From a virus, in the IMG/VR virus record IMGVR_UViG_3300009510_000002: DNA of 64,000 bases, one strand, 5' to 3'. The notes beneath the pieces are model-generated. The model saw only the letters and a list, made by a program, of their open reading frames with translations, searched no databases and was not told the origin of the DNA. Within the stretch, counting starts at the first letter, position 1; every line of letters begins with the position of its first letter. Positions 1 to 50,118 of the stretch are shown one piece after another. The position numbers and the translations under genes are program-made.

Positions 1-176
1 AGTACTTCGCGTACTACGTTATGGGCAAGAGTTAAAGACCTACCAGGGGATGCGTAGCTAGTCCCGTGCTCTAGAACCGGACGATTAAACATCTTTAAAG
101 GGGTTAAGGAAGTGTCGTCTGGAGAGTACCGACCCATAACATTGTCAAAGCTCACATTACCCCGAAAGGGAGTTTG

Positions 177-5387: not shown

Positions 5388-5669
5388 ATGCTGCGAAAGT
5401 TACACCTCATAAGGCTAAAAAAGCCACACCAAATTAACTATACGGTGATGTTACTAATAACACTTCTAGCTATTTTAGGTACTACCAAGTGGCATATTGT
5501 CTATTCTTCAACCTCAAATAAACCAAATGGTTGGGAGGTCGAGACTTACCCCGATAAGCTGTGGCCATATACGACAACGTTATTATTTAGCCTTGGTATA
5601 CCCTTTGATAGCATCAACAAGGAAAAAATAGTTAAGCTCATCTCTGCTATCTCAGCATTATATAAATAG
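5388..5669 (+). CDS. hypothetical protein, possible membrane protein
   Basis: 93-aa ORF with a hydrophobic stretch (VMLLITLLAILG). Weak support. Confidence 0.3.
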   Translation: MLRKLHLIRLKKPHQINYTVMLLITLLAILGTTKWHIVYSSTSNKPNGWEVETYPDKLWPYTTTLLFSLGIPFDSINKEKIVKLISAISALYK

Positions 5670-5681
5670 TGGAATATATGT

Positions 5682-6305
5682 GTGATTCAATCAATCTTAA
5701 AAAAGCTGAAAAAAGCTTTACAAAAAACCAAAACTATCGGACAGAAACACCCCAAGGTAATTAAAACGAAATATGGAAAAAAATGCGCGGTCTTCCAAAT
5801 TCATGACCCCCAATTCATCGCCACATTCAGAGTCACACCGTACTCTGTCGAGGTGGGAGATTTTGAGTATATATTCAAAATTCGTATTTTGCCCGGTTTC
5901 GAGGAAGAAATTCTTGGGGAATTCGATGGGGAAGTTATCTCTGTACCATCGGATCTGTCTAAAGATGGCCTGTGTGTATATGAGTTTTCGATACTCGCTT
6001 TATTTCCTAATGGCGCTAGTCGGGTTCTGTATTGTATTTACATCGATTCTTATAATCCCAACCGTACCAGGGTTAGTAGAATCCTCGGCGCCACAGCTAG
6101 GAGGATCGCATATAAATCACTTCAGGTAGTCCACGACCCTAAAAACGGTTTAAGCCACACATGGCGATCGCTGATGGCAGAGAGAAACTGGCTTCTAGAA
6201 CTCAGTGAGGCGATCGCCATGTTTGAAGAATCAGATCCCGATCTCAAAAACCAACACATCAGTACATCGATAGTGCTGATGTATCAAGCGGATTTGTATT
6301 ACTAA
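5682..6305 (+). CDS. hypothetical protein
   Basis: 207-aa ORF with GTG start. The overlapping ORF 5773..6129 looks less protein-like. Confidence 0.5.
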   Translation: MIQSILKKLKKALQKTKTIGQKHPKVIKTKYGKKCAVFQIHDPQFIATFRVTPYSVEVGDFEYIFKIRILPGFEEEILGEFDGEVISVPSDLSKDGLCVYEFSILALFPNGASRVLYCIYIDSYNPNRTRVSRILGATARRIAYKSLQVVHDPKNGLSHTWRSLMAERNWLLELSEAIAMFEESDPDLKNQHISTSIVLMYQADLYY

Positions 6306-9351: not shown

Positions 9352-10089
9352 ATGCTCGACGAAGTAGACGCAATAGAAAGAATCGCAAGCTTTTGTAGGC
9401 GATTCGGGATAAATCACTGGTACTTAGCTTATCATGCTGCTTTCCCTCAGAGAATTACGCCTGAACTTCTTACTGAAATTCGAGAAAGATTTGTTCATGA
9501 TTCACACTGGGGAGCCATTAGTGACCTACTTTTATCCAGACTGTTTCAAGAGGTCGGATATGAACTTTACGAGATGGATGTTACGTTGCGTAATATTTTG
9601 TTACATGAATTAATTTCATTTGAGAAGTATGGTAAGCGACGATTGGTTGAGCTAGCTAACTTTTATCTCGAATGGGTTTCCAAAAATCCAAGAAGAGTTT
9701 CTGAAAAAGGGTTTACACACCCTTCTGTCTGGATACCACTGATCTTGGGTGAAGAACCCACAAAACATCTAAATTACCATCTAGCGATCGCAATTCAATC
9801 AGGGCTACAAAAAGGTGATCTAAAAGAGTTGTTTCGATTAGCAATGTTTGCAGAAAATACCCCACCAGTGTTGGTGGATATTAATCCTTTATTACTCACT
9901 TACTGTAAGGGATTACATGAACTCGTTGTTCTCAGCGGTGGTGTAGAATGTGCGCTAAAAAAGTTCAAGGAGCTTGTAGACCAAGGGTATACAAATCTAA
10001 ATGTTTTTGGTGTTAACTTACCAATCCTTGAAAGAGATACTCTGGAGAAATTGTTGAATCCAAGAAGACAGGAAGTGGAAGAAGAGTAG
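9352..10089 (+). CDS. hypothetical protein
   Basis: 245-aa ORF in the same-strand gene string. Confidence 0.6.
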   Translation: MLDEVDAIERIASFCRRFGINHWYLAYHAAFPQRITPELLTEIRERFVHDSHWGAISDLLLSRLFQEVGYELYEMDVTLRNILLHELISFEKYGKRRLVELANFYLEWVSKNPRRVSEKGFTHPSVWIPLILGEEPTKHLNYHLAIAIQSGLQKGDLKELFRLAMFAENTPPVLVDINPLLLTYCKGLHELVVLSGGVECALKKFKELVDQGYTNLNVFGVNLPILERDTLEKLLNPRRQEVEEE

Positions 10090-39409: not shown

Positions 39410-39916
39410 TTGTACTACGACAGACACGTCATCCTCGACATGGACAAAAAACAAGCTGCTGAATTTTTAGGTGTTAGTCAGCGCATGATTGAACGCTATA
39501 CTCAGTCTGGCGAGATTGGGTGTACATATATTAAGCAAGGACGGGTAAATAAGGCTATATATGACGAAGAGGAATTAAGGAGATTTAAAGAACGGCGAGA
39601 AAAACCAATTCGTCCATCCATTACCACTGATACACCACGACAATCTCCGACATCCCACGACATTATACCGTACCCTGACACCTCCGACAGTATTGAAGAT
39701 ATCGTTGAAATAACCAGGATTTTCACCATAGGATTACAGCAAATTAGAACCAGTGAAAAGCTGGTATTAACACTGAAAGAATGTCAGTTACTAACTGGGC
39801 TTTCTCGTAAATATTTGTTGGATGCGATCGCGTCTAAGAAGCTAAAAGCCAAGTATATTGGCAGGGGGTGGAAAATTACCAGAATAGATTTAAAGGCTTT
39901 TACTAGATCCTTTTAG
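39410..39916 (+). CDS. DNA-binding protein with two excisionase/MerR-type HTH segments
   Basis: KQAAEFLGVSQRMIERYTQSGEI and LTLKECQLLTGLSRKYLLDAIASKKLKAKYIGRGWKITRIDLKAF. Confidence 0.55.
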   Translation: MYYDRHVILDMDKKQAAEFLGVSQRMIERYTQSGEIGCTYIKQGRVNKAIYDEEELRRFKERREKPIRPSITTDTPRQSPTSHDIIPYPDTSDSIEDIVEITRIFTIGLQQIRTSEKLVLTLKECQLLTGLSRKYLLDAIASKKLKAKYIGRGWKITRIDLKAFTRSF

Positions 39917-40045
39917 ATCCGTCTTCTAAGAATAGGGGGTCAAACCCCCTATCTATTTTTCTTCCTGCTAAAGATAGATTTTAAGAAACAAGGCTATAAT
40001 TTTTTTTAATTATTGTATTTTGCAAGCAATTTATTTGGTTTAAAA

Positions 40046-40531
40046 ATGTTAACAATTCAGTTAAGTACAGGAAGCCTACGTACATCGCTAAGTAGGTTTT
40101 TGGATACACCCATATTGGTCGAAAAAGTTGGCGACAAATACCAAGGGCTTGTTTTTTTAGATGGGGAGAATTTATTTAAAACCCCACTTTACAATTCCCC
40201 CAAATATACTTTACAAAAACTTCAAAGGAAAGCAGTTGAAAATTATTGCTACTCATCAAGATACCCTACCGTTATGATGAGTATTCGTGGCCAAAAGCAA
40301 AAAGTGGTTGCATTGAACGAATTGGCAGAGAATTTTTTAGGGGACAAATTAAATGGGGAACCTTCGATTTTTAGTAAATGGGGACGGGAATATATGCGGA
40401 AACACTTACTTTCTTTAAAAATTGCAGACATTGATCATTTAAATACAAAAAATGCCTTGATAGAAATTAAAAGGGTATCAAAGGCACTTTTTGTTTATTC
40501 ATTTGTAAATTGGGAGGATTCTATTTACTAA
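40046..40531 (+). CDS. hypothetical protein
   Basis: First ATG in the ORF-track frame. The track start at 40013 is TTG. Confidence 0.45.
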   Translation: MLTIQLSTGSLRTSLSRFLDTPILVEKVGDKYQGLVFLDGENLFKTPLYNSPKYTLQKLQRKAVENYCYSSRYPTVMMSIRGQKQKVVALNELAENFLGDKLNGEPSIFSKWGREYMRKHLLSLKIADIDHLNTKNALIEIKRVSKALFVYSFVNWEDSIY

Positions 40532-41327
40532 TCTCTTCATACTCTAATATCAAGTCTTCAATTAACTTAATAATTTGTTCGTAGCAATTACCTAATTTAG
40601 CGTCCCAAGTACTTTGCAGGGTGGTTAACTTTCTTCTATCCAAATATTCTACCATGAACCAAGCTATGGTATAGAGTGTATTCTCTGATATCTCTATACC
40701 ATCTACATTATTTCTAATATGGTGCAAAGTCTCAAGCGGGATATTGGTCATTCCCGCGCAATCAACCAAAGAAAAATTTCTCTTGGTCAGTACGTATATA
40801 AAAGCTTTTTGTAAGCGATTTAAAAGATCTCCGGAAATTGTACTCTGTCTTTTGTCAGATTGCCCTTTTAATCTTTCGGCTAATAATTGGCTTGATATTG
40901 CGACAATGTTAGCCAGTTCAGCCGTAGAGGCATTCTGAAGCCGAGACTCTAGGTCTTCAGCCTCAGAGACAGTACAGTTTAGTTTGTTTATCAAAAAGCT
41001 GGCCAGTGACATCCCGTAAAATTTAGCCAGCATTGCCAAGTCTGTGACTTTTGGCACATCAGTTTGAGCCGGGTCAGACCAACGCCGGATTTTGTTTCTT
41101 CCTATTTCCGGAATTTTACTTTCTATTTCTGCGGACAACTTATAGGGTGTTAGATCTTTTTCTCTGGCTTCCTGCCTGAAAAAGGTTACGAGCTTGGCTT
41201 TAATATCTTCCTCGGGTGGAAAGTAATTCGCCGATTTTACGTTTCCACTTACATCACGATCATCACGATAATTATTATCTTCCTTACCATTCACTGAAGT
41301 CTCACCGCTTAGTAACACCATAACCAC
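40521..41327 (-). CDS. double XRE-type HTH regulator encoded directly downstream of the Cas12-like gene
   Basis: KIRRWSDPAQTDVPKVTDLAMLAKFYGMSLASFL and SLVDCAGMTNIPLETLHHIRNN resemble two XRE HTH units. Confidence 0.55.
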   Translation of the reverse strand: MVMVLLSGETSVNGKEDNNYRDDRDVSGNVKSANYFPPEEDIKAKLVTFFRQEAREKDLTPYKLSAEIESKIPEIGRNKIRRWSDPAQTDVPKVTDLAMLAKFYGMSLASFLINKLNCTVSEAEDLESRLQNASTAELANIVAISSQLLAERLKGQSDKRQSTISGDLLNRLQKAFIYVLTKRNFSLVDCAGMTNIPLETLHHIRNNVDGIEISENTLYTIAWFMVEYLDRRKLTTLQSTWDAKLGNCYEQIIKLIEDLILEYEEISK

Positions 41328-41455
41328 ATACTACCGCTTTGCAACTACACATATCTTATAATATTATCAAATAAATATTTTTGCAAAACAAGTATATTTT
41401 TGCAAATCGCATGAAATACTTGTGGTGGCAGTATTTCAGCGATTTCGTTTTTAGC

Positions 41456-43336
41456 TTAAGTTTTCACCACTATTGGTTTTATTCTCTTTGTTTTAGCCGT
41501 TTTTGGTTTAACAGCCTTTCTGGTTTTTTTGATAGTGCGTTTTTTGCTGTCTACACCCTCTAGCGATTCAGGTGGCACAGGCTTGTCAGTGCGGGTAATA
41601 TGAGAAAACCATTCATAGTGCTTAATATCTTTTTCATCACAAAAAGCACCGTAATAATCATTTTGTGCAGCATTTGTATCAGCGTTTTGTTGAATTTGAT
41701 AAAGCTTACAACGTTCGTTTAAGCAGTAAAACTCAAGAGCTTTTGGGTGTCTACCTAGTTCCCCACAACAGTGACATATCTGGCTGGAATAAGGAGATGG
41801 GGACAAAGTGAAGCTATCTGGTCCCCTAAATCGCCGACATTTCTCCTCCACCAGCGATCGGTATCGTCCCCATCTAGCATCTAAAATTTCGCGATTTAAA
41901 TCAGATTGGTGTTCCGCACCATTTGGTTCATATCCTTTACCATCTGCACTTGGTATCGGATCCGGACGCTTCACCATCTCGTCTGTCGGCATTTCCTCAA
42001 TAGTTATTTTCCCAAAGCGGCGTACCAGAATAGTTGAGGATTTATGCAAAAATGCATTGGCGGGTCGCCGGATCTTGGTTTCATTGATTTTACCTTTTCG
42101 GTGGAGCGTTTTTTTGTAATTATTACTATCTCCCCGCAAATGATCCACGGACAACCCTTGCTCTTGGCGCTCCTTGATTAATTTTTTCCTATCGCTGCGT
42201 TGTCTGGCTAGTTTACGCTCGATTCTTGCTAATTTTCGAGCTTGTTTGGCAGCAAACCGAGGATTTTTGACATGGCTACCAGGTTCGTCACTGGACATGA
42301 GGTTGATTAGCCCCGTATGGACAGCTATTCCCCGCTTCCGAGGTTTAATTTTGGCTTTTTTACGTACCTGTATTGATAATTCTGCCTTTAAATCACTGAT
42401 TTGCTGCTTAAGCAACTCTTTTTCCACAAACTCCGGAGTCTTTTTCAACTGAGCTTCCAGTTTACGAATTTTAACTTCCAAAGGATGGGCACTGACAATA
42501 CACACATACCACCCGGTGGGTTCTTCCTTAATAGTTACCGCCCTAATGGCTCCGGGGGTAGATCGCACCTCTTCGGGAATTCGCTCATGATTCTTATTTA
42601 CAAATCTTAGTGATAAAGGATGCTGCTTACCTTCACCATCTACCCATTTACCAGGGAGCCTAAGTCTATCGCCATCAAACCAGATCTGCTCTGGACTAAT
42701 GCAATGGAATGATGGCAACATCTCATTCTTTTTAAAATTAGGCATACAAGCTTTTTCTATCTTGGGGTTCAAATAAGCTTCCCAAGCAGCAACTAAGCGA
42801 TTAAACACAGTCCCCTTCATCCAAGACGACGGTACAGTGAGTTCCCCCAGTAGTTTTAGTTTCGGCTGACCCTTTTCTACACGATCCTTATTTATTAGCC
42901 GCCGGCGGGAGTCTTCTTCTTCACGCATCAAATCACATCTTGTCTTAGTCAGGTACCCTGTAAGGGTCATAAAAAGGTCTGGATTTTTGGGTCTAGCCTT
43001 ATTTTCAGGGTAATGGGACAACAGAGTTGGTTCCTCTGGTAGCATTTTTGGGGGTATGGGGGTGTAGACTCCATTTTTAATAATTGCAATTTCACAAGTT
43101 GGCGATGCCCATGCCCTCTTTTTATTTAAGCGGAGCCTACAGCGGAGAATCCCGTTCATGTTGATTTTTTCTTTTGCTGCGTTTTTTAACATGAACTCGT
43201 AATACCTAAACTGCTGATACTCAATCAGCAACTCTAGCGCCTTGTTCCAAATCCACCTTAAATTAGCTGCATTTCTGCCAGTAAAGAAATTTTTCTCCCA
43301 ATCATTCATGTAGATTTTGCACTCAGTCGTTATCAT
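41456..43336 (-). CDS. TnpB/Cas12-like RNA-guided effector candidate (type V-like), RuvC-I Asp replaced by His
   Basis: TnpB-like WED/REC strings. RuvC-I position reads RGIAVHTGL (H340), RuvC-II ITIEEM (E447). Zn ribbon C521xxC524...C538x4C543. RuvC-III NADTNAAQN (D553). Adjacent CRISPR array. Confidence 0.8.
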   Translation of the reverse strand: MITTECKIYMNDWEKNFFTGRNAANLRWIWNKALELLIEYQQFRYYEFMLKNAAKEKINMNGILRCRLRLNKKRAWASPTCEIAIIKNGVYTPIPPKMLPEEPTLLSHYPENKARPKNPDLFMTLTGYLTKTRCDLMREEEDSRRRLINKDRVEKGQPKLKLLGELTVPSSWMKGTVFNRLVAAWEAYLNPKIEKACMPNFKKNEMLPSFHCISPEQIWFDGDRLRLPGKWVDGEGKQHPLSLRFVNKNHERIPEEVRSTPGAIRAVTIKEEPTGWYVCIVSAHPLEVKIRKLEAQLKKTPEFVEKELLKQQISDLKAELSIQVRKKAKIKPRKRGIAVHTGLINLMSSDEPGSHVKNPRFAAKQARKLARIERKLARQRSDRKKLIKERQEQGLSVDHLRGDSNNYKKTLHRKGKINETKIRRPANAFLHKSSTILVRRFGKITIEEMPTDEMVKRPDPIPSADGKGYEPNGAEHQSDLNREILDARWGRYRSLVEEKCRRFRGPDSFTLSPSPYSSQICHCCGELGRHPKALEFYCLNERCKLYQIQQNADTNAAQNDYYGAFCDEKDIKHYEWFSHITRTDKPVPPESLEGVDSKKRTIKKTRKAVKPKTAKTKRIKPIVVKT

Positions 43337-43489
43337 CCCCGTTACCCCTAAACCGTGACATGAACTAATTTAATCCAAAAAAGAACATCTTGCCTTTTTT
43401 GAAATTATGGATCATAATGTGTTTACTTTGAATTTTTCAAAGTCTACGCGGCTTGGTCTGCGGAAGTTAAAGCTTGTTCTGAACTTAAG

Positions 43490-43804
43490 TTCAGTATTTG
43501 GGGGACAAAATACCAGTGGGAGTACCCCCAAGCGACCAGTAGGTGAAAGCCCTGGATTGAGACAAGTCCCTCAATGAGCGGGCCGGAATCCTGCTCCGAT
43601 CCCGGGCAACCGGAATACCTACACTCTTAGAGCGATCTGCTACCTGAACCTTGACAATTGCGCGCGTGCCACCCTTGCGATCTTTGCTCTGCAACGATTT
43701 TGGGTATCTGCTGTATCTCACGCGGGAATAAACACAGCTTGTTTACCTGAACTTCGGAAACCCTTTCTGGAATTCTTTCTACGACTGGGTTCTGGAGGGG
43801 AGGG
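43490..43804. ncRNA. ORF-free GC-rich structured region between effector gene and array: tracrRNA/leader candidate
   Basis: Stems such as GGGGG(43500-04)/CCCCC(43525-29). Anti-repeat CTTGCGATCT at 43674-43683 is complementary to the repeat 3' end. The ORFs predicted here look spurious. Confidence 0.5.
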
Positions 43805-44654
43805 GTGGCGATAGGCTTTAGATGTCTGGGTAGTCGCAAGCTTGTAATGCCCAAACTTTTTGGTGTGCATCCCTAGCGGTGGCGATAGGCTTTAGATGTC
43901 TGGGTAGTCGCAAGTTTACAATAGGCAGATTCTTGATCAGCTAACGCTTAACGTGGCGATAGGCTTTAGATGTCTGGGTAGTCGCAAGCTCAACCAGCTA
44001 ATTCCTAGCTATACTGGACAATCAGTGGCGATAGAACTTAGATGTCTGGGTAGTCGCAAGTGCCTATGATCCTCTGTTCCTTAGAGTGTTGGTGTGCTCT
44101 GTGGCGATAAGCCCTAGATATCTGGGTAGTTGCAAGAATACGAGTTATTGCCGCATCTTTATCTAGGTCAACTGTAGCGATAGGCTCTAGATGTCTGGGT
44201 AGTCGCAAGAATCACGGTTGGCACGAGAGCGTTTTTCGCTCAATTTCGTGGCGATAGGCCCTAGATGTCTGGGTAGTCGCAAGCTGATCCATTCTTTCGT
44301 CACTTTCCACCCCCAATCCAGGTGGCGATAGGCCCTAGATGTCTGGGTAGTCGCAAGGTTGACATAAGTTACTGAATTTAAGTCTCGATTTAATTAGTGG
44401 CGATAGGCTCTAGATGTCTGGATAGTCGCAAGTGGAGTTATTGGATTTGGATAAACACCACGAAAAAGTGGTGATAGGCTTTAGATGTCTGGGTAGTCGC
44501 AAGTAAAATTTGAGTGTTTACTTAAATCAGGGGGTTAAAAGTGGCGATCGCACCTAGTAGATGTTAGACAGTCGCAAGACACAGAATACAGGTTTAAACT
44601 TGTTAATGACAGCATTAAAGTCGCGATCGCACTTAAATATTTAGGCAGTTGCAA
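43805..44654 (+). CRISPR. CRISPR array: 10 conserved plus 2 degenerate 36-nt repeats, 35-41 nt spacers
   Basis: Consensus GTGGCGATAGGCTTTAGATGTCTGGGTAGTCGCAAG. Repeat starts at 43805, 43879, 43953, 44025, 44101, 44174, 44248, 44322, 44397, 44468, with degenerate copies at 44541 and 44620. Strand is inferred from the degeneration gradient. Confidence 0.9.
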
Positions 44655-44690
44655 TTCTGACTAATTATTAAAAAAGGTTAAGATCCGGGA

Positions 44691-45331
44691 GTGGCGATCG
44701 CAAGTGATAGTTCTGAATGATCGCAAGTTATCTTCCTGGTTGCCACAATTTTGGGGATGCCTGGCGAAAATCGCAAGTATCCAGGTCAGGACAAGACAGG
44801 GAATAGGGATTGCAAGGGTAAGGAATTTTAGGTCTGAGCGATCGCAGGTCCGAGTATGTCGCAAGTTGAATCGTGAGCCATCGACTGTTAAAGGTCTAGC
44901 GCAGGTTTAGACAATTCCCCAAAAAGTTGTTTTCTCCTGAAAACCTTACCCCACAAAGGTTTTGGTTGCACAAGTATTTGTACTTTGATTACGAAACACA
45001 TAAATTGGGCGTAGGTCGCAAGTCAGCAGGAATTTTATCACTTAGGTTCTCACAGGCAGTTTTAGGATTGGTGGCGATCGCTAAGTATTACAGTTTTCTA
45101 GTCAAGTAGGAAAGAAAGATCGCAAGCTGTGAACAATTACTTTAAATAGGTTTAGATCGCCAAGGATGAATAAAAAGATGAGATCGCAAGTCATGGGATT
45201 GGCAAGTCGCAAGACAAATTTCTCTCCCTATTCAGATCGCAAGCTGATCCAAAATGTCAGATAGACTATTTGCTTAATGTAGTGCGATCGCAAGAACGAA
45301 GGGAACATTCCGAGTTTTGATAGATCGCAAG
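44691..45331 (+). repeat. trail of 11 exact (plus ~7 near) copies of TCGCAAG, the 3' end of the CRISPR repeat, at irregular 17-69 nt spacing
   Basis: Exact copies end at 44704, 44727, 44777, 44865, 45022, 45126, 45190, 45213, 45243, 45294, 45331, all on the + strand. 44691-44704 GTGGCGATCGCAAG is a collapsed repeat. Confidence 0.8.
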
Positions 45332-45340
45332 CTGAAAAAC

Positions 45341-45994
45341 TTATTTACTGCTTCGTAAAGAAGATAGCCCAAAAGCTTTGAGAATTTGATTTTCTACCTG
45401 AACCTCAACAAATGAGGGAATAGAGCCTTTGGGTGCGAGACTTGGTACGTGATTATTGATCACAGTTCCAGCTTTCCAACATTTATCAAGAACTGACCAA
45501 ACTTCTACAGTATCGCCCAATGAGGGGTATTCTGCTAAAAATTTTTCTTGTTCAACTACTGCCGATTTTTTAACTTCTTGTGGTGCTATCAGAGTAACTT
45601 CACCTCCGTAGCATCCAGGTGAAAGCTTTTCCAAGAACTCTGCTACATCGTGACGGTGGCAGGGTTCATTTGGTTTTTCGTAGCATAAAAGCGTTACGGG
45701 TTTTCCTGCTGACAAGGTAGAATTGAGCCAATTAGTAATTTGCTCAGAATTCTTCCTCAGAATATTCAAAAAAGCTGGTTGGTAACTAACGGTATACAGA
45801 TTTTTTAAATAAGTCGAATAGTTTTCAACCTCAGCAGTTTTTGCTTTTTTCTCTATGAGTTTCCACTTTTTTAGTAGCTCCTCAGACGGGGCAAGCATAT
45901 TTAAGTGTGTCCCAGTGAAATTTTTTGGGGGACGACGGGAGATAGAAATACCTTCCCCGATAATTGGTCCGGAGTAGTAACTGGTGTGAATCAT
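45341..45994 (-). CDS. hypothetical protein
   Basis: 217-aa ORF, last gene of the replication-module string. The N-terminus faintly resembles DUF488-type proteins (not verified). Confidence 0.55.
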   Translation of the reverse strand: MIHTSYYSGPIIGEGISISRRPPKNFTGTHLNMLAPSEELLKKWKLIEKKAKTAEVENYSTYLKNLYTVSYQPAFLNILRKNSEQITNWLNSTLSAGKPVTLLCYEKPNEPCHRHDVAEFLEKLSPGCYGGEVTLIAPQEVKKSAVVEQEKFLAEYPSLGDTVEVWSVLDKCWKAGTVINNHVPSLAPKGSIPSFVEVQVENQILKAFGLSSLRSSK

Positions 45995-46809
45995 GCCAAC
46001 AGCCCCAGTAGTGGATAGTTTTCTTTGCAGTTTGGACTAAGCCATAAACACTCAACACCAGTACGAGAGCCATTAGTTTTAGCGTCCCACTTAATACACC
46101 GCCAGTCAGACAGCGATCGCTCATAAACTTCAGACCCGTACCCAGAAAGAATAACCATTGCATCTACTGATTGAAGTGTGGAGAGTAATTCTTGATGCTG
46201 GTGAATACTCATCTCATGGTCATAAATATTTTTGCTGACCCGCGAATCTGCGATGTAGGGAGGGTCACAGTAAAGCAGAAGGTCTGGATTTTCCCCTACA
46301 CGGCGAATTAGCTTTAGGGCATCCCCACATTCAATCTGAACCAGCTTTAGGCGATCGCGCACCTGCTCCAAATGGTTGGTTCTATTCCAAGTCTCAACGA
46401 CGTTTCGGCTATTGGATTGATGAATGAGTGACCATCCCCCGTTTTTAGTAACCGATGTTCCGCCGCCGTGGGTCTGCCAGCTGCGAATATAGAAATTAAC
46501 GGCACGTTGCAAGGGTTCGGTAGTTGGTTCAAAAGCTTTCTTCCAGACGGTTCGGGAGTAGGGAGTATTCTCTATCTGCCAGAGAAACTCCTGATAGCGA
46601 TCGCGGAAAACCTGGAAGAAATTAACCACGTCGTCGCTGAGGTCGTTGATAATTTCAACTGGGACTGGAGGTTTCTGGAGGAGTACTGATGCTCCGCCAC
46701 AGAAGGGTTCACAGTACGCAGAATGGGGAGGGAAGTGGGAGATAATCTTGGCAGCATCTCGGTACTTCCCCCCAAAGTATCTGAGCAATGGGGGTAAATC
46801 GGCGATCAT
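45991..46809 (-). CDS. dam: Dam-family DNA adenine methyltransferase
   Basis: LRYFGGKYRDAAKIISHFPPHSAYCEPFCGGASV and the catalytic motif LYCDPPY. Confidence 0.85.
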   Translation of the reverse strand: MIADLPPLLRYFGGKYRDAAKIISHFPPHSAYCEPFCGGASVLLQKPPVPVEIINDLSDDVVNFFQVFRDRYQEFLWQIENTPYSRTVWKKAFEPTTEPLQRAVNFYIRSWQTHGGGTSVTKNGGWSLIHQSNSRNVVETWNRTNHLEQVRDRLKLVQIECGDALKLIRRVGENPDLLLYCDPPYIADSRVSKNIYDHEMSIHQHQELLSTLQSVDAMVILSGYGSEVYERSLSDWRCIKWDAKTNGSRTGVECLWLSPNCKENYPLLGLLA

Positions 46810-48134
46810 TGATGCCTTGGTAGAATATCTCTAAAGGTGGTAAATTGTCTGTCAAACAGCATTTTTACTGTTCCGGTAGGACCATTACGGTGTTTGGCCA
46901 CGTTTATCTCAACTATTCCCTGTTCCTCTGACTGAGGGTTGTAGTAGTCGTCACGGTATAATATCATGACCATGTCTGCGTGTTGCTCGATAGCACCAGA
47001 CCCCTTTAAGTCGGATAAAAGTGGGCGCTTATCATTTCTGGATTCACACCCCCGATTGATTTGACAAAGCAGGATAACCGGTACTTTTAGCTCACCACTT
47101 AGCTGCCGGAAAGCCAAAGTAATCGCATCTAACTCTGATACTTCATTTGAAACTTGATTAGATTTACTCATTAACTGTAGATAGTCAACAACTACAGCCC
47201 CCAAAACACCATTGTTTCGTTTCTTGGCCCATCGGCATTGGGCAAGTATAGAGGACGGGGTAATATTCCGGCTATCGTTTACGTAAATCGATAATCCAGA
47301 AATTTTATTAGTAGCCTCAACTACCTTATCCCACTGAAAATCTTTTATATCCCTCATCTTGAATATGTTTGTGGGTAGTTGAGATTTTGAGCAAATCATT
47401 CTTTCTACTAATTGCTGACTGCTCATTTCTAGGCTGAATACAACTACTGGGGCAACTCTGGAAATATTCTCGGCTATCTCTAGCCCCAGGGCAGTTTTAC
47501 CCATTGATGGCCGTCCAGCAATAATTGTCAAAGTTGATTCACTAAGCCCCCCAGTTAGTCCATCTAGTGCAAGATACCCAGTTTTGACACTGGGGGATAT
47601 ATCACCACTTTGGACTCCTTCTAATTTTGTAAATCCCGCGATCGCTATTTCACTAATTGGTTTTAACTCAGAGGTAATGCTTTCTTGGAAACCATCAATT
47701 ATCCTTGAACCGTAAGCCAGTATTTCTTCATTGGTGTTTGCAGGGGTTTCTGCAAAATCCAAGAGTTCCCTAAATTGGGTAATTATTTGACGACGTATCC
47801 ATTTTTGGATCAACAAATCGGACAGCTGGTCGATGTTAACATCTGAAACTGTCCGATCTAGTAGGTCTGCTAATTTCGACCTACCCCCAACGTTGTGTAA
47901 TTCTTGGATTTCCTCTAGCTTATTTGCTACAAACATGGCATCCGTCGGTTTCCCTTCTAGACGCAGAGTAAGTATAGCTCTATAGATTTTTTGGTGAGTT
48001 ACCAAGTAAAAAGCTTCTTCCCTCAAGGTTTCAATCACCCTTTCTATGGCACCTGGGGATAACATCAAACCACCCAGAACCGCCTCTTCTGCCTCAATGC
48101 TGTTTGGTGGGACTTTCAAAAATTGAGATTCCAT
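46806..48134 (-). CDS. dnaB: replicative DNA helicase DnaB
   Basis: N-terminal PPNSIEAEEAVLGG, Walker A AGRPSMGKTA, DYLQLM, typical length of 442 aa. Confidence 0.9.
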   Translation of the reverse strand: MESQFLKVPPNSIEAEEAVLGGLMLSPGAIERVIETLREEAFYLVTHQKIYRAILTLRLEGKPTDAMFVANKLEEIQELHNVGGRSKLADLLDRTVSDVNIDQLSDLLIQKWIRRQIITQFRELLDFAETPANTNEEILAYGSRIIDGFQESITSELKPISEIAIAGFTKLEGVQSGDISPSVKTGYLALDGLTGGLSESTLTIIAGRPSMGKTALGLEIAENISRVAPVVVFSLEMSSQQLVERMICSKSQLPTNIFKMRDIKDFQWDKVVEATNKISGLSIYVNDSRNITPSSILAQCRWAKKRNNGVLGAVVVDYLQLMSKSNQVSNEVSELDAITLAFRQLSGELKVPVILLCQINRGCESRNDKRPLLSDLKGSGAIEQHADMVMILYRDDYYNPQSEEQGIVEINVAKHRNGPTGTVKMLFDRQFTTFRDILPRHQ

Positions 48135-48183
48135 AAAATTGCTCGGTTTTTTGTATTTAGTACAACAGGATACTACCTAAGCT

Positions 48184-50118
48184 CTAAGCTGTTTCTTGCA
48201 TTAAGTGGCCATATCGTTGGAAAACTTTTGGCGATCGCGACATTTTTACTCTGAAAAGACGACCGAATCCAGACTTACAAATATGCTCACCCCAGCGATC
48301 GACCTGAGCCTGATCACGGAAGAGTCGCCCAATATTAGACTGGGTAAGAAATTCTTCAAACCCGTGGATTTCAATTTGGTCCATCACATTTTCATGATGA
48401 ATTGAATCAAATTCCACAAAAAAGTCTACTTCGGGTTCCGCTTCTTTTTGGCGGAGTTTGCGAAGATAAGCTAAGTAGTCCTTGTAATATTCTTTCGCCC
48501 TGACGTAATTGCCGGAAATCTCACTCATGCAATTAACGCGCGTCGGTTGGTAATTGCTCTTACCGTTGATATTCGTGAGTTTACATTCCTCCTCACGTAC
48601 CTTAATATACCATCCGAGAAAATTCCTGTCAACATTATCACCATTCATCCACGGGTCAGCGGACGAACTGCGATGAACACCCTTGATCGGGTTAAGGTGG
48701 CGTTTCAAAAGTGAACCGCAGTATTCGTCTAGCTCATCATCGGTTTTGTTAATCCATTCATCCGTATGATCAGCAACATTTGGTCTATGTAATATTGGCT
48801 TGGGGATATTAGTTCGATTGTTCGGCTTTGTCGAACGAGGCGCGGAACCTTCTTTTTTAAATCCGTTGGGAAATGAGTGATCTGTGTGCTGCTTAATTTC
48901 TTCACATGGCGAAGATGTTGTTTCTGGTTCTTCTTCAGTTGTGCTGCTAACGGTAGGTTCTTCTGAAATTAACGTCAGGTTAATAGCTGGTAGATCTTGG
49001 ATTACCTCAAATCCAGGGATAAGGGGTAAATCTGGAAATTCCTCTTTGGCCATTTCTTCTTTCTCCTCCGATTTTGGAACAAAATCCTCCTCACTTGTCT
49101 TTGGGTGGGGGGTGGGATTTGTATTTGTAGTAGTTAATGAAGTAATAATTGAATTCCTTATATATAGGGTGTCTTCACTTCCTTCATTCACTTGGGGTGA
49201 ACAGTCTTGGCTACATACGTCTGTAGATGGGCCCAAAAAAACAGCCCCTGAATCCTGTAAACTAAGATCCTTTATCTCTGTCTTGTCAGGTACGAGAGAT
49301 AAGTGAGCTTTATCGGATCTAGAAAGCCCTCTCGATTTTTTTGATGATTGTTTGGATTTAAACTTCCCAGTAAGTATTGCAATTTTGCTGTGGTTCCTAA
49401 AATACCACGTCGTTCCCTCTAAGTGGTCGTGATAGCTGCAAAAGTATTTTTCTTCGCCATCCTCACTTAAAAATGGGTTTGGTGATGCAATAAACTGGGT
49501 GTAAGATTTATGCTTAACACCAATTTTGTCAAAAGCTGTTCTGAACTGAAATTCGCTAAAACCTAGTTCCTCGGTCCAACTGTCACCTAACCTGTAATGT
49601 CGGTTGTCGTTGGGGGATAAAAATTTGTAGAAACCTTCGCCTTTGGTTATGTCAAACCAGTATTCCAATCTGGTAAAGACAATAGCGGCGTTAATATCTT
49701 TTACAAGGTCAAGAATTGGGCGACTGTAGCCAATAAAGTCCATACGTTTTATACTGAGAAAGTTAGAAAAATTAGAAGAGTGCGATCTATCTAGATGTGT
49801 TTGGTGTGAACTTGAGTTTATATGCGACTGTTCACACGATTGGGCATCTATTTTTGTTGTTGGTGTATTTATGGTGGGCGACGAAAACATACTATCCCTG
49901 TCTCCGCCCCCATTCTTTTTTGCACCTCTGGGGCTAATACCTTTTTCCCTTACGGTAAGGAGATCTTGAGGCTTGTAATTTATAAAAATCTCAGAATTCT
50001 TGTTGACAGTATCGCTAGAAAATGATATATTCAGCATTGATTCTTTGTTTAACATTTCTTGCTCCTTCTTCTGCTGAGTTAGAGGTGTTGTAGATAAAGA
50101 TCCTTCTTTAGCTAGCAT
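48184..50118 (-). CDS. hypothetical protein, candidate replication initiator/organizer by position
   Basis: 644-aa ORF directly upstream of dnaB with a repeat-bearing AT-rich region upstream. Possible winged-helix segment (INAAIVFTRLEYWF...ELGFSEFQFRTAFDKIG). Confidence 0.55.
   Translation of the reverse strand: MLAKEGSLSTTPLTQQKKEQEMLNKESMLNISFSSDTVNKNSEIFINYKPQDLLTVREKGISPRGAKKNGGGDRDSMFSSPTINTPTTKIDAQSCEQSHINSSSHQTHLDRSHSSNFSNFLSIKRMDFIGYSRPILDLVKDINAAIVFTRLEYWFDITKGEGFYKFLSPNDNRHYRLGDSWTEELGFSEFQFRTAFDKIGVKHKSYTQFIASPNPFLSEDGEEKYFCSYHDHLEGTTWYFRNHSKIAILTGKFKSKQSSKKSRGLSRSDKAHLSLVPDKTEIKDLSLQDSGAVFLGPSTDVCSQDCSPQVNEGSEDTLYIRNSIITSLTTTNTNPTPHPKTSEEDFVPKSEEKEEMAKEEFPDLPLIPGFEVIQDLPAINLTLISEEPTVSSTTEEEPETTSSPCEEIKQHTDHSFPNGFKKEGSAPRSTKPNNRTNIPKPILHRPNVADHTDEWINKTDDELDEYCGSLLKRHLNPIKGVHRSSSADPWMNGDNVDRNFLGWYIKVREEECKLTNINGKSNYQPTRVNCMSEISGNYVRAKEYYKDYLAYLRKLRQKEAEPEVDFFVEFDSIHHENVMDQIEIHGFEEFLTQSNIGRLFRDQAQVDRWGEHICKSGFGRLFRVKMSRSPKVFQRYGHLMQETA

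Follow-up and report, generated by a model that had tools for sequence, protein, structure and literature searches.

Why should the last nucleotides of a repeat, rather than the repeat itself, recur behind a CRISPR array (short palindromic repeats, clustered and regularly interspaced)? The question is raised by positions 44,691–45,331 (the trail) of a 64,000-nt stretch of viral DNA (the window; IMG/VR record IMGVR_UViG_3300009510_000002), in which TCGCAAG, the 3’ end of the repeat of a phage type V array, is found time and again downstream of that array. The units of the trail derive from array repeats, share the strand and register of the array, favour the 3’ end of the repeat and are complementary to the anti-repeat. 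Judged from its sequence, the trail is very probably the decayed tail of the phage array. We put at about even the chances that its repeat ends, acting as guide handles, are selected now or were until recently, and that they probably still yield short CRISPR RNAs (crRNAs).

The RNA-coding part of the locus is divergent from the effector gene and consists of a candidate trans-activating CRISPR RNA (tracrRNA), ten repeats, two degenerate repeats and the trail. The 3’ part of the candidate tracrRNA is made up of the anti-repeat, followed by a hairpin and a U-run. Some 5’ ends of repeats have been converted to the cyanobacterial palindrome GCGATCGC (highly iterated palindrome 1, HIP1). The elements preceding the trail are as follows.

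41456–43336, − strand: effector gene, Cas12p / V-U2-like type V, 626 aa (Pfam, NCBIfam and PDB matches)
~43495–43702, + strand: candidate tracrRNA, about 200 nt, G+C-rich (sequence, GC profile and fold of 43660–43715; predicted ends)
43674–43683, + strand: anti-repeat CTTGCGATCT, 131 nt upstream of repeat 1
43805–44503, + strand: intact CRISPR array, ten repeats of 36 nt (GTGGCGATAGGCTTTAGATGTCTGGGTAGTCGCAAG) with a period of 71–76 nt
44541–78 and 44620–56, + strand: two degenerate full-length repeats (R11d and R12d), 5’ ends HIP1-converted (GTGGCGATCGCA...)

TCGCAAG occurs 24 times in the whole window, compared with a mean of 4.8 and a maximum of 12 in 100 shuffles. Ten copies belong to CRISPR repeats (nine of the ten intact repeats and R11d) and 11 to 44698–45331; all 21 are on the + strand, and the − strand of the trail has none, which agrees with the 11 copies reported in a preliminary description of this DNA. 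That description had noticed one more copy elsewhere, while we count three outside the CRISPR region, at 9383 (+), 35617 (+) and 43674 (−), the last of these being the anti-repeat. Allowing one substitution, the trail contains 14 TCGCAAG-like sequences on the + strand and one on the − strand. The near variants reported earlier, TTGCAAG (44810), TCGCAGG (44842), TCGCTAAG (45078–85) and TCGCCAAG (45157–64), were found again, along with TGGCAAG (45200), GCGCAGG (44899), TTGCACAAG (44966) and TAGTCAAG (45099–45106), and the spacing of the motifs is irregular (17–69 nt), as described.

The simplest explanation for such a density would be a background word of a HIP1-rich genome, since the window has 101 HIP1 sites and the motif overlaps GATCGC. 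The preliminary description had allowed for this, but within the window the idea is rejected and we give it practically no credence: GATCGCAAG does not occur on the + strand outside the locus, where there are 95 HIP1 sites, and is found on the − strand only as the anti-repeat, and for TCGCAAG the two strands together have three copies in 62 kb beyond the locus, as against 11 in 0.64 kb.

Ancestry from the array is indicated by alignment. In the ungapped, motif-anchored alignment there is no conservation upstream of position −9, and positions −9/−8 read GA where the array has AG. Of the 30 7-mer windows of the repeat, the last alone is enriched, the first (GTGGCGA) being present twice and the middle ones at background level. 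Once gaps are permitted, the 30-nt stretches upstream of the motifs taken together score higher against the repeat than control sequence (P = 0.0005). Iterative local alignment of 44504–45345 yielded 12 significant repeat-like segments (control mean 3, maximum 7) covering 323 of 842 nt (62 in controls); the opposite strand gave only one. Strand, register, gapped alignment and enrichment of the 3’-terminal 7-mer thus support what had been proposed earlier, an eroded array in which the tracrRNA-binding handle is conserved. The features of the trail are listed below.

44691–44727, + strand: R13, degenerate full-length repeat, 71 nt after R12d and in register (gapped alignment)
44756–44777, + strand: T3, repeat positions 17–36, GATGCCTGGCGAAAATCGCAAG (gapped alignment)
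44807–44816, + strand: T4v, GGATTGCAAG, inverted pair; with the next GGT, can pair over 16 nt with the anti-repeat
44838–44865, + strand: R16, degenerate repeat with an internal deletion; 5’ end T5v (GCGATCGCAGG), 3’ end T6 (GTCGCAAG)
44873–44905, + strand: R17, degenerate full-length repeat ending in GCGCAGG (T7v) (gapped alignment)
44940–44967, + strand: weak A+T-rich hairpin, unconvincing as a terminator (fold, terminator scan)
44964–44974, + strand: T8v, GGTTGCACAAG
45006–45022, + strand: T9, repeat positions 23–36, TGGGCGTAGGTCGCAAG (gapped alignment)
45071–45106, + strand: R20, degenerate full-length repeat; 5’ end GTGGCGATCGCTAAG (T10v), 3’ end TAGTCAAG
45115–45126, + strand: T11, AAAGATCGCAAG, a 12-nt perfect complement of the anti-repeat
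45146–45164, + strand: T12v, ATAGGTTTAGATCGCCAAG, repeat positions 7–19 joined straight to the 3’ end
45181–45190, + strand: T13, AGATCGCAAG
45200–45213, + strand: T14, TGGCAAGTCGCAAG, repeat positions 23–36 (gapped alignment)
45234–45243, + strand: T15, AGATCGCAAG; the next 8 nt are the start of spacer 7
45260–45294, + strand: R26, degenerate repeat, positions 6–36; a TGCGA insertion makes a HIP1 site; 3’ end T16
45314–45331, + strand: T17, last unit, GTTTTGATAGATCGCAAG

The first of these entries replaces an earlier interpretation, in which 44691–44704 was a repeat lacking its middle 22 nt; the sequence is instead the HIP1-converted 5’ end of the full-length repeat R13, which contains TCGCAAG twice, as T1 in the converted 5’ end (GTGGCGATCGCAAG, 44691) and as T2 at the true 3’ end. 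Like T1, the TCGCAGG at 44842 (T5v) and the TCGCTAAG at 45078 (T10v) are 5’ ends of full-length degenerate repeats. At the 5’ end of these old repeats GTGGCGATAGGC has been changed to GTGGCGATCGCA..., a HIP1 site, just as in the repeats at 44541 and 44620, and because such converted ends mimic the motif, its density in the trail appears to be double that in the array. With them set apart, there are 15 units with true 3’ ends, ten of them exact, and the end-to-end period falls from 78 and 71 nt to 20–84 nt (mean about 40). The AGATCGCAAG type can be understood as a repeat minus 11 internal nucleotides, because ATAGGTTTAGATCGCCAAG at 45146–64 joins repeat positions 7–19 directly to the 3’ end. 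Five AGATCGCAAG copies had been claimed; four are exact (45117, 45181, 45234 and 45322) and the fifth reads AGATCGCCAAG. The earlier observation that TCGCAAGCTGATCCA at 45237–51 is identical to the junction of repeat 7 and spacer 7 holds. At 45237–45251 and 44277–44291, the trail unit and repeat 7 share the next 8 nt (CTGATCCA) and then diverge, and two more AGATCGCAAG units likewise continue with CTG; the same sequence after T15 and repeat 7 indicates either a common ancestry of the units or guides with a common seed.

The hairpin at 44940–67, proposed earlier to divide the trail in two, is weak (−8 kcal/mol, z = −0.14) and received no call in the terminator scan, and it was rejected as a terminator. 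The hairpin sequence (44937–44958, CTGAAAACCTTACCCCACAAAG) is a 22-nt exact match to the Dolichospermum flos-aquae plasmid pAfl69 (positions 1501–1522 of the plasmid sequence examined), where a tyrosine integrase gene ends immediately before it; with E = 5 the match is possibly due to chance, although the host group is plausible, and it could represent a common attachment-site or terminator sequence. The trail is non-coding, its longest open reading frame (ORF) being no longer than 68 aa, and a coding-repeat interpretation was rejected on this ground. Beyond T17 the sequence runs antisense into the stop codon of a convergent DUF488 gene (45341–45994, − strand).

How far the retention of the 3’ end departs from neutral decay can be estimated from the rest of the repeat, which in the trail units is 63% identical (a generous gapped estimate), random controls giving 60%. 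At 63% identity, the probability that a 7-mer remains intact is 0.04 and that of at least 10 of 15 remaining intact is about 3e-11; retention of the 3’ end is therefore beyond neutral decay. As a check on ascertainment, 30 original units would still predict only about one intact 7-mer. Loss is, moreover, one-sided: at least eight 3’ ends lack a recognisable 5’ end, while each recognisable 5’ end has a 3’ end within about 40 nt. Decay is thus not uniform along the repeat, with the 3’ 7-mer intact in 10 of 15 units and the remainder near random. These statistics, drawn from one sequence, support selection on the handles, now or recently.

The same observations bear on a serious rival account, namely that the trail is a functionless relic, a dead tail whose 3’ ends persist through the mode of deletion (e.g., TCGCA slippage) or which was stranded recently when a newer module recombined in. 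We regard this as possible, with a likelihood clearly short of even. Repeat ancestry is clear, indels are many, degenerate terminal repeats are common in CRISPR arrays, targets were not found, and some units are too short for a guide. The HIP1-converted 5’ ends also create a 5-nt direct repeat, TCGCA, inside one repeat, so that slippage between the converted 5’ end and the 3’ end could create some junctions without selection; it would not create most units, and accounts for A-type units alone. Nor does a relic explain why 7-mer retention is far above the neutral expectation, or why at least eight 3’ ends have lost any recognisable 5’ end when every 5’ end still has its 3’ end. A difference in age between array and tail is suggested by the distribution of HIP1, whose mean density in the window is 1.6 per kb: a 4.7-kb stretch, 39832–44543, comprising two ORFs of no assigned function, the effector, the tracrRNA and repeats 1–10, is HIP1-free, whereas the decayed tail after 44543 holds six sites in 760 nt. 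This suggests that the effector-array module is younger than the tail, or was recombined in within the array, but the gap is marginal once the choice of the largest gap is allowed for (P ~0.06; author’s estimate).

What the retained stretch might do is indicated by its complementarity to the tracrRNA. Canonical repeats pair with 43674–83 through seven Watson-Crick pairs and one G-U pair, while AGATCGCAAG is, as had been noted before, the perfect complement of CTTGCGATCT at this site. In the 13 units whose motif is exact or has one substitution, pairing extends over 8–13 contiguous nucleotides (at least nine in 10 of the 13), and one of them has 12 perfect pairs. AGATCGC accounts for five of the ten GATCGC sites in the trail, compared with nine of 118 elsewhere (P ~4e-4; author’s binomial estimate).

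Since several handles pair with the anti-repeat better than canonical repeats do, and some 15 sites lie on one strand, the trail transcript might also act as a sponge or decoy, titrating the tracrRNA or effector of the phage or of a related host system and tuning or blocking guide loading in the manner of RNA anti-CRISPRs. Guide-mimicking phage RNAs have been described (bioRxiv 10.64898/2026.06.01.729453, 10.64898/2026.06.03.729762). Such a phage would, however, inhibit its own system, and the units are decayed and heterogeneous instead of forming a clean repeated decoy. We therefore consider a sponge unlikely, and the decoy handles put forward in the preliminary description less likely. On the question of host-repeat mimicry, the sole outside resemblance to the repeat is a solitary, unannotated element of pAQ7-type plasmids in four Picosynechococcus strains (positions 2501–2543 of the plasmid sequence examined), which is 85% identical to 44613–44658, i.e., R12d with 4 nt downstream; neither an array nor an effector was noticed in its neighbourhood.

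GATC is 4-fold enriched in the trail, the phage has a Dam-type methylase, and the trail adjoins replication genes. These observations would fit DNA-level protein sites, such as iterons, an origin or a packaging site by the DnaB-Dam-DUF488 replication module. The motif is, however, identical to the end of the CRISPR repeat and its units are of repeat ancestry; they are on one strand, irregularly spaced and without helical phasing, and the GATC excess follows from HIP1 and the handle sequence. We consider such sites very unlikely.

The nature of the effector is relevant to any function of the handles. Its product matches the Pfam family Cas12f1-like_TNB and is a TnpB/Cas12-type protein. The score against the NCBIfam C2c8 (V-U2) model is 170 bits, below the model cut-off of 350, and the best match among solved structures is Cas12p (PDB: 9jfs; E = 3e-32; residues 164–572). 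Based on these comparisons, the effector appears closest to Cas12p (“Cas12 hacker”) and V-U2. Two independent alignments place His340 (GIAVHTG versus GIDPG) at the position of the RuvC-I Asp; Glu447 and Asp553 are retained, hence the Asp-Glu-Asp triad (D378, E478 and D582 in Cas12p) is not intact. The protein may bind DNA without cutting it, or may use a non-canonical site. A word-indexed protein search with the effector returned the self match only, an exhaustive search of 1.8 billion representatives found the nearest relatives at 32–39% identity, and scans for related loci in viral, genome and metagenome collections gave distant TnpB-like matches only. By sequence, then, the effector appears to be an orphan protein.

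Among characterised systems, Cas12p (type V-P) is phage-borne, has 500–700 aa, a 185-nt tracrRNA, 37-nt repeats and a GTN protospacer-adjacent motif, and is activated by thioredoxin (bioRxiv 10.1101/2025.01.20.633832). In the cryo-EM model the crRNA consists of a 10-nt repeat part and a 17-nt guide (PDB: 9jfs), and a pseudoknot links its last four repeat nucleotides to the tracrRNA (same report). The locus described here resembles it in having a phage-encoded effector in the 500–700 aa range for which Cas12p is the best structure match, a candidate tracrRNA where Cas12p is tracrRNA-dependent, and repeats of 36–37 nt; the approximately ten last repeat nucleotides resolved on the Cas12p crRNA are the stretch conserved in the trail. 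It differs in the His for the RuvC-I Asp, in a repeat ending in CAAG in place of AAAC, in the inverted position of the RNA module relative to the effector gene, and in the trail of truncated units, which is not described for Cas12p. A Cas12p-type pseudoknot between the last four repeat nucleotides and the 5’ part of the tracrRNA was sought by eye and by folding; the result was ambiguous and no such structure is claimed.

The V-U2 (C2c8) system of the cyanophage vB_AphaS-CL131 (PMC6293099) similarly combines a small type V effector with an array in a cyanophage. Its 36-nt repeat is homologous to that of the window (...GATGTC...TAGTTGGCAAG), and upstream of the array, at a distance of about 120 nt, there is a complement of its repeat end: CTTGCCA at 121 nt for a repeat ending in TGGCAAG, where the window has CTTGCGA at 131 nt. 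This difference is a compensatory change, which backs both the orientation and the anti-repeat pairing. The proteins, however, share only ~25–29% identity over part of their length, and the CL131 array follows the gene on its own strand and stops cleanly where the next gene begins. Searches with nhmmer and blastn revealed no homology between the candidate tracrRNA and the relatives, and Rfam had no match at the CRISPR locus. In CL131 (5768–5802 of the sequence used), a copy of the repeat 3’ end (TTGGCAAG) and the complement CTTGCCA form a hairpin between gene and array, and in another relative (L177, 3264–3285) a lone 3’ half repeat, with a hairpin behind it, is located 199 nt ahead of the first repeat. 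These elements look as if a single-guide-like unit were built into the tracrRNA region in this effector family.

Truncated units are known from type V-K transposons, where a truncated repeat-spacer unit at or past the array end, with ~13 nt of tracrRNA-pairing repeat and a 17-nt spacer, was proposed from comparative genomics to be an attachment-site guide (bioRxiv 10.1101/2021.02.06.429022). The trail handles, with 7–12 nt complementary to the anti-repeat, likewise lie downstream of the array and join a tracrRNA-pairing repeat part to a short spacer-like stretch. V-K elements, on the other hand, have one unit per element, a clear tRNA attachment-site target, Cas12k and Tn7-like genes; the window has about 15 visibly decayed units for which no target was found. 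Within the 64-kb window the spacer-like sequences had no match beyond chance, and the window has no tRNA genes. Transposase and Tn7-like families (tnsB, tnsC, tniQ) were absent from the 32 ORFs scanned, which were larger ones and mostly from 29.9–64 kb. A type V-K transposon was rejected as an identification, as the effector matches Cas12p/C2c8 instead of Cas12k and the scanned ORFs include no transposase.

Ordinary array erosion shares with the trail its leader-distal position, its strand and register, and decay that grows with distance. The degenerate repeats of ordinary arrays usually number one or two, which differs from about 15 units at half the period, of which the guide-handle end has selectively survived.

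Two further precedents come from TnpB-related proteins. Phage-encoded, nuclease-dead TnpB relatives use guides of 9–16 nt (bioRxiv 10.1101/2023.11.30.569447), and inactivated Cas12f-derived TnpB systems have half direct repeats by the tracrRNA and arrays of guide RNAs, for which a route from array to half repeat has been proposed (PMC10691335). The trail resembles the latter in that this proposed route has an array shrinking to half repeats with the scaffold 3’ end only, in nuclease-inactivated relatives; in the Cas12f-derived systems, however, scaffold and half repeat are fused and duplication affects whole guide RNAs, whereas the half repeats in the window stand alone behind a normal array.

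Taken with the retention statistics, these comparisons suggest the following course of events for an eroded tail with selected handles. Internal deletions and indels, together with conversion to the HIP1 palindrome of the host type, would have squeezed an old promoter-distal tail of about 15 more repeat units from a 74-nt period to one of about 40 nt, leaving nearly intact the last 7–10 nt of each, i.e., the stretch that would pair with the anti-repeat CTTGCGATCT. Because of the precedents of Cas12p, V-K, nuclease-dead TnpB and half repeats, this stretch is likely to be what such an effector needs. Read-through transcripts of the array would enter the trail, each handle would pair with the tracrRNA and then be processed, and the effector would be loaded with a short crRNA composed of the handle and the following ~17 nt, a step that is modelled on the homologues. 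Present or recent selection for such RNAs would have preserved the handles. The outcome would perhaps be binding of DNA in place of cutting, because of the His that replaces the RuvC-I Asp.

A stronger version would have the trail as a working multi-guide locus, with about a dozen minimal crRNA genes (a 10-nt handle and a short guide), read through from the array and serving the Cas12p-like effector with its altered RuvC site to bind, in place of cutting, DNA of the host or of rival phages. The truncated-repeat mini guides of the preliminary description are mechanistically plausible given the 10-nt repeat part and 17-nt guide of Cas12p, and the terminator scan detected no terminator between array and trail; we nevertheless regard a working locus of this kind as doubtful.

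Several results weigh against selected, guide-producing handles. Three of the motif copies are repeat 5’ ends and hence no handles, and several units leave only 7–16 nt ahead of the next handle. Since TCGC is preceded by GA in 49% of genome cases (HIP1), the extra complementarity to the anti-repeat may partly be a HIP1 by-product. A promoter scan found no promoter-like site in the trail. Within the 64-kb window, the best matches of the post-handle sequences are 11–14 nt long, off the handle and approximately at chance level; the search of phage and plasmid collections (E ≤10) gave nothing meaningful, only chance-level matches and two plasmid matches. Related arrays, those of CL131 and L177, end cleanly and have no trail, and that of L022 (effector 32% identical; repeat end GGTTGCAAG) consists of two repeats and a single truncated TTCGCCAAG. 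No related phage was found in the collections for a comparison of conservation. On this last point, an exact-repeat scan of viral contigs gave no match, a genome scan with the degenerate repeat pattern GATGTCNNNNTAGTNGCAAG gave chance single matches, the pattern being too loose, and the matches to the DUF488 gene beside the trail were all identical copies from this same phage. The window is matched at 100% identity by two contigs from other samples, one spanning the whole trail (44475–50082) and the other 45231–46225; the trail is therefore no assembly artefact, while their identity means that they hold no comparative information.

One distant relative may provide a second handle-only cluster. 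In L170 (effector 28% identical) the layout is inverted as in the window, and at 5397–5645 (−), upstream of and divergent from the effector, a scaffold-like region is followed by half repeats ((TTAATCYCTGGAAG)GGGCTGAAAC) spaced 28–110 nt apart. There are five to six of them, ending in GCTGAAAC, and they are 3’ halves of the 37-nt repeat of L177; no full array is present on the 10.9-kb contig. Clusters of this kind may, as this hints, be a recurrent feature of the effector family. Upstream of another effector relative (L171, 5119–5347) there are two clusters of four close GGTTCACA motifs of iteron-like appearance. In the Cylindrospermopsis phage Cr-LKS4 (3159–3849 of the sequence used), a tandem duplication with a period of ~364 nt and 91–100% identity is located upstream of a TnpB-like “transposase” and may represent a guide RNA gene present twice.

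The window is a phage genome, encoding a large terminase, head maturation protease, endolysin, tail completion protein and cement protein, as well as DnaB, the Dam-type methylase and ribonucleotide reductase. With its 101 HIP1 copies, it is a cyanophage. The ORF at 39410–39916 (+), at a distance of 1.5 kb from the effector, encodes 168 aa with two HTH_17 domains (excisionase-type), a possible regulator that may be compared with the MerR-type repressor CvkR of V-K systems. An Rfam HEARO RNA was detected at 1–160 (+) (100.8 bits), incomplete at the window start; HEARO RNAs are guide RNAs of IscB-type HNH nucleases. The ORFs next to it (191–718 and 779–1399) had no Pfam match. The phage may thus carry a second, unrelated RNA-guided element.

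Whatever the fate of the handles, the locus adds an orphan cyanophage effector that is near Cas12p and V-U2 and whose RuvC-I site is non-canonical. As no more than a relic, the trail would still be a clear case of HIP1 conversion and internal deletions remodelling old repeats in cyanobacterial and cyanophage DNA, with little wider consequence. If it is a working multi-guide locus, it would be a natural multiplexed array of short guides for RNA-guided repression. If the handles are selected, they would offer a natural view of how little of the repeat a tracrRNA-dependent type V effector needs, and the shrinking of an array to handle-only units would correspond to a proposed route from CRISPR to nuclease-dead RNA-guided regulators.

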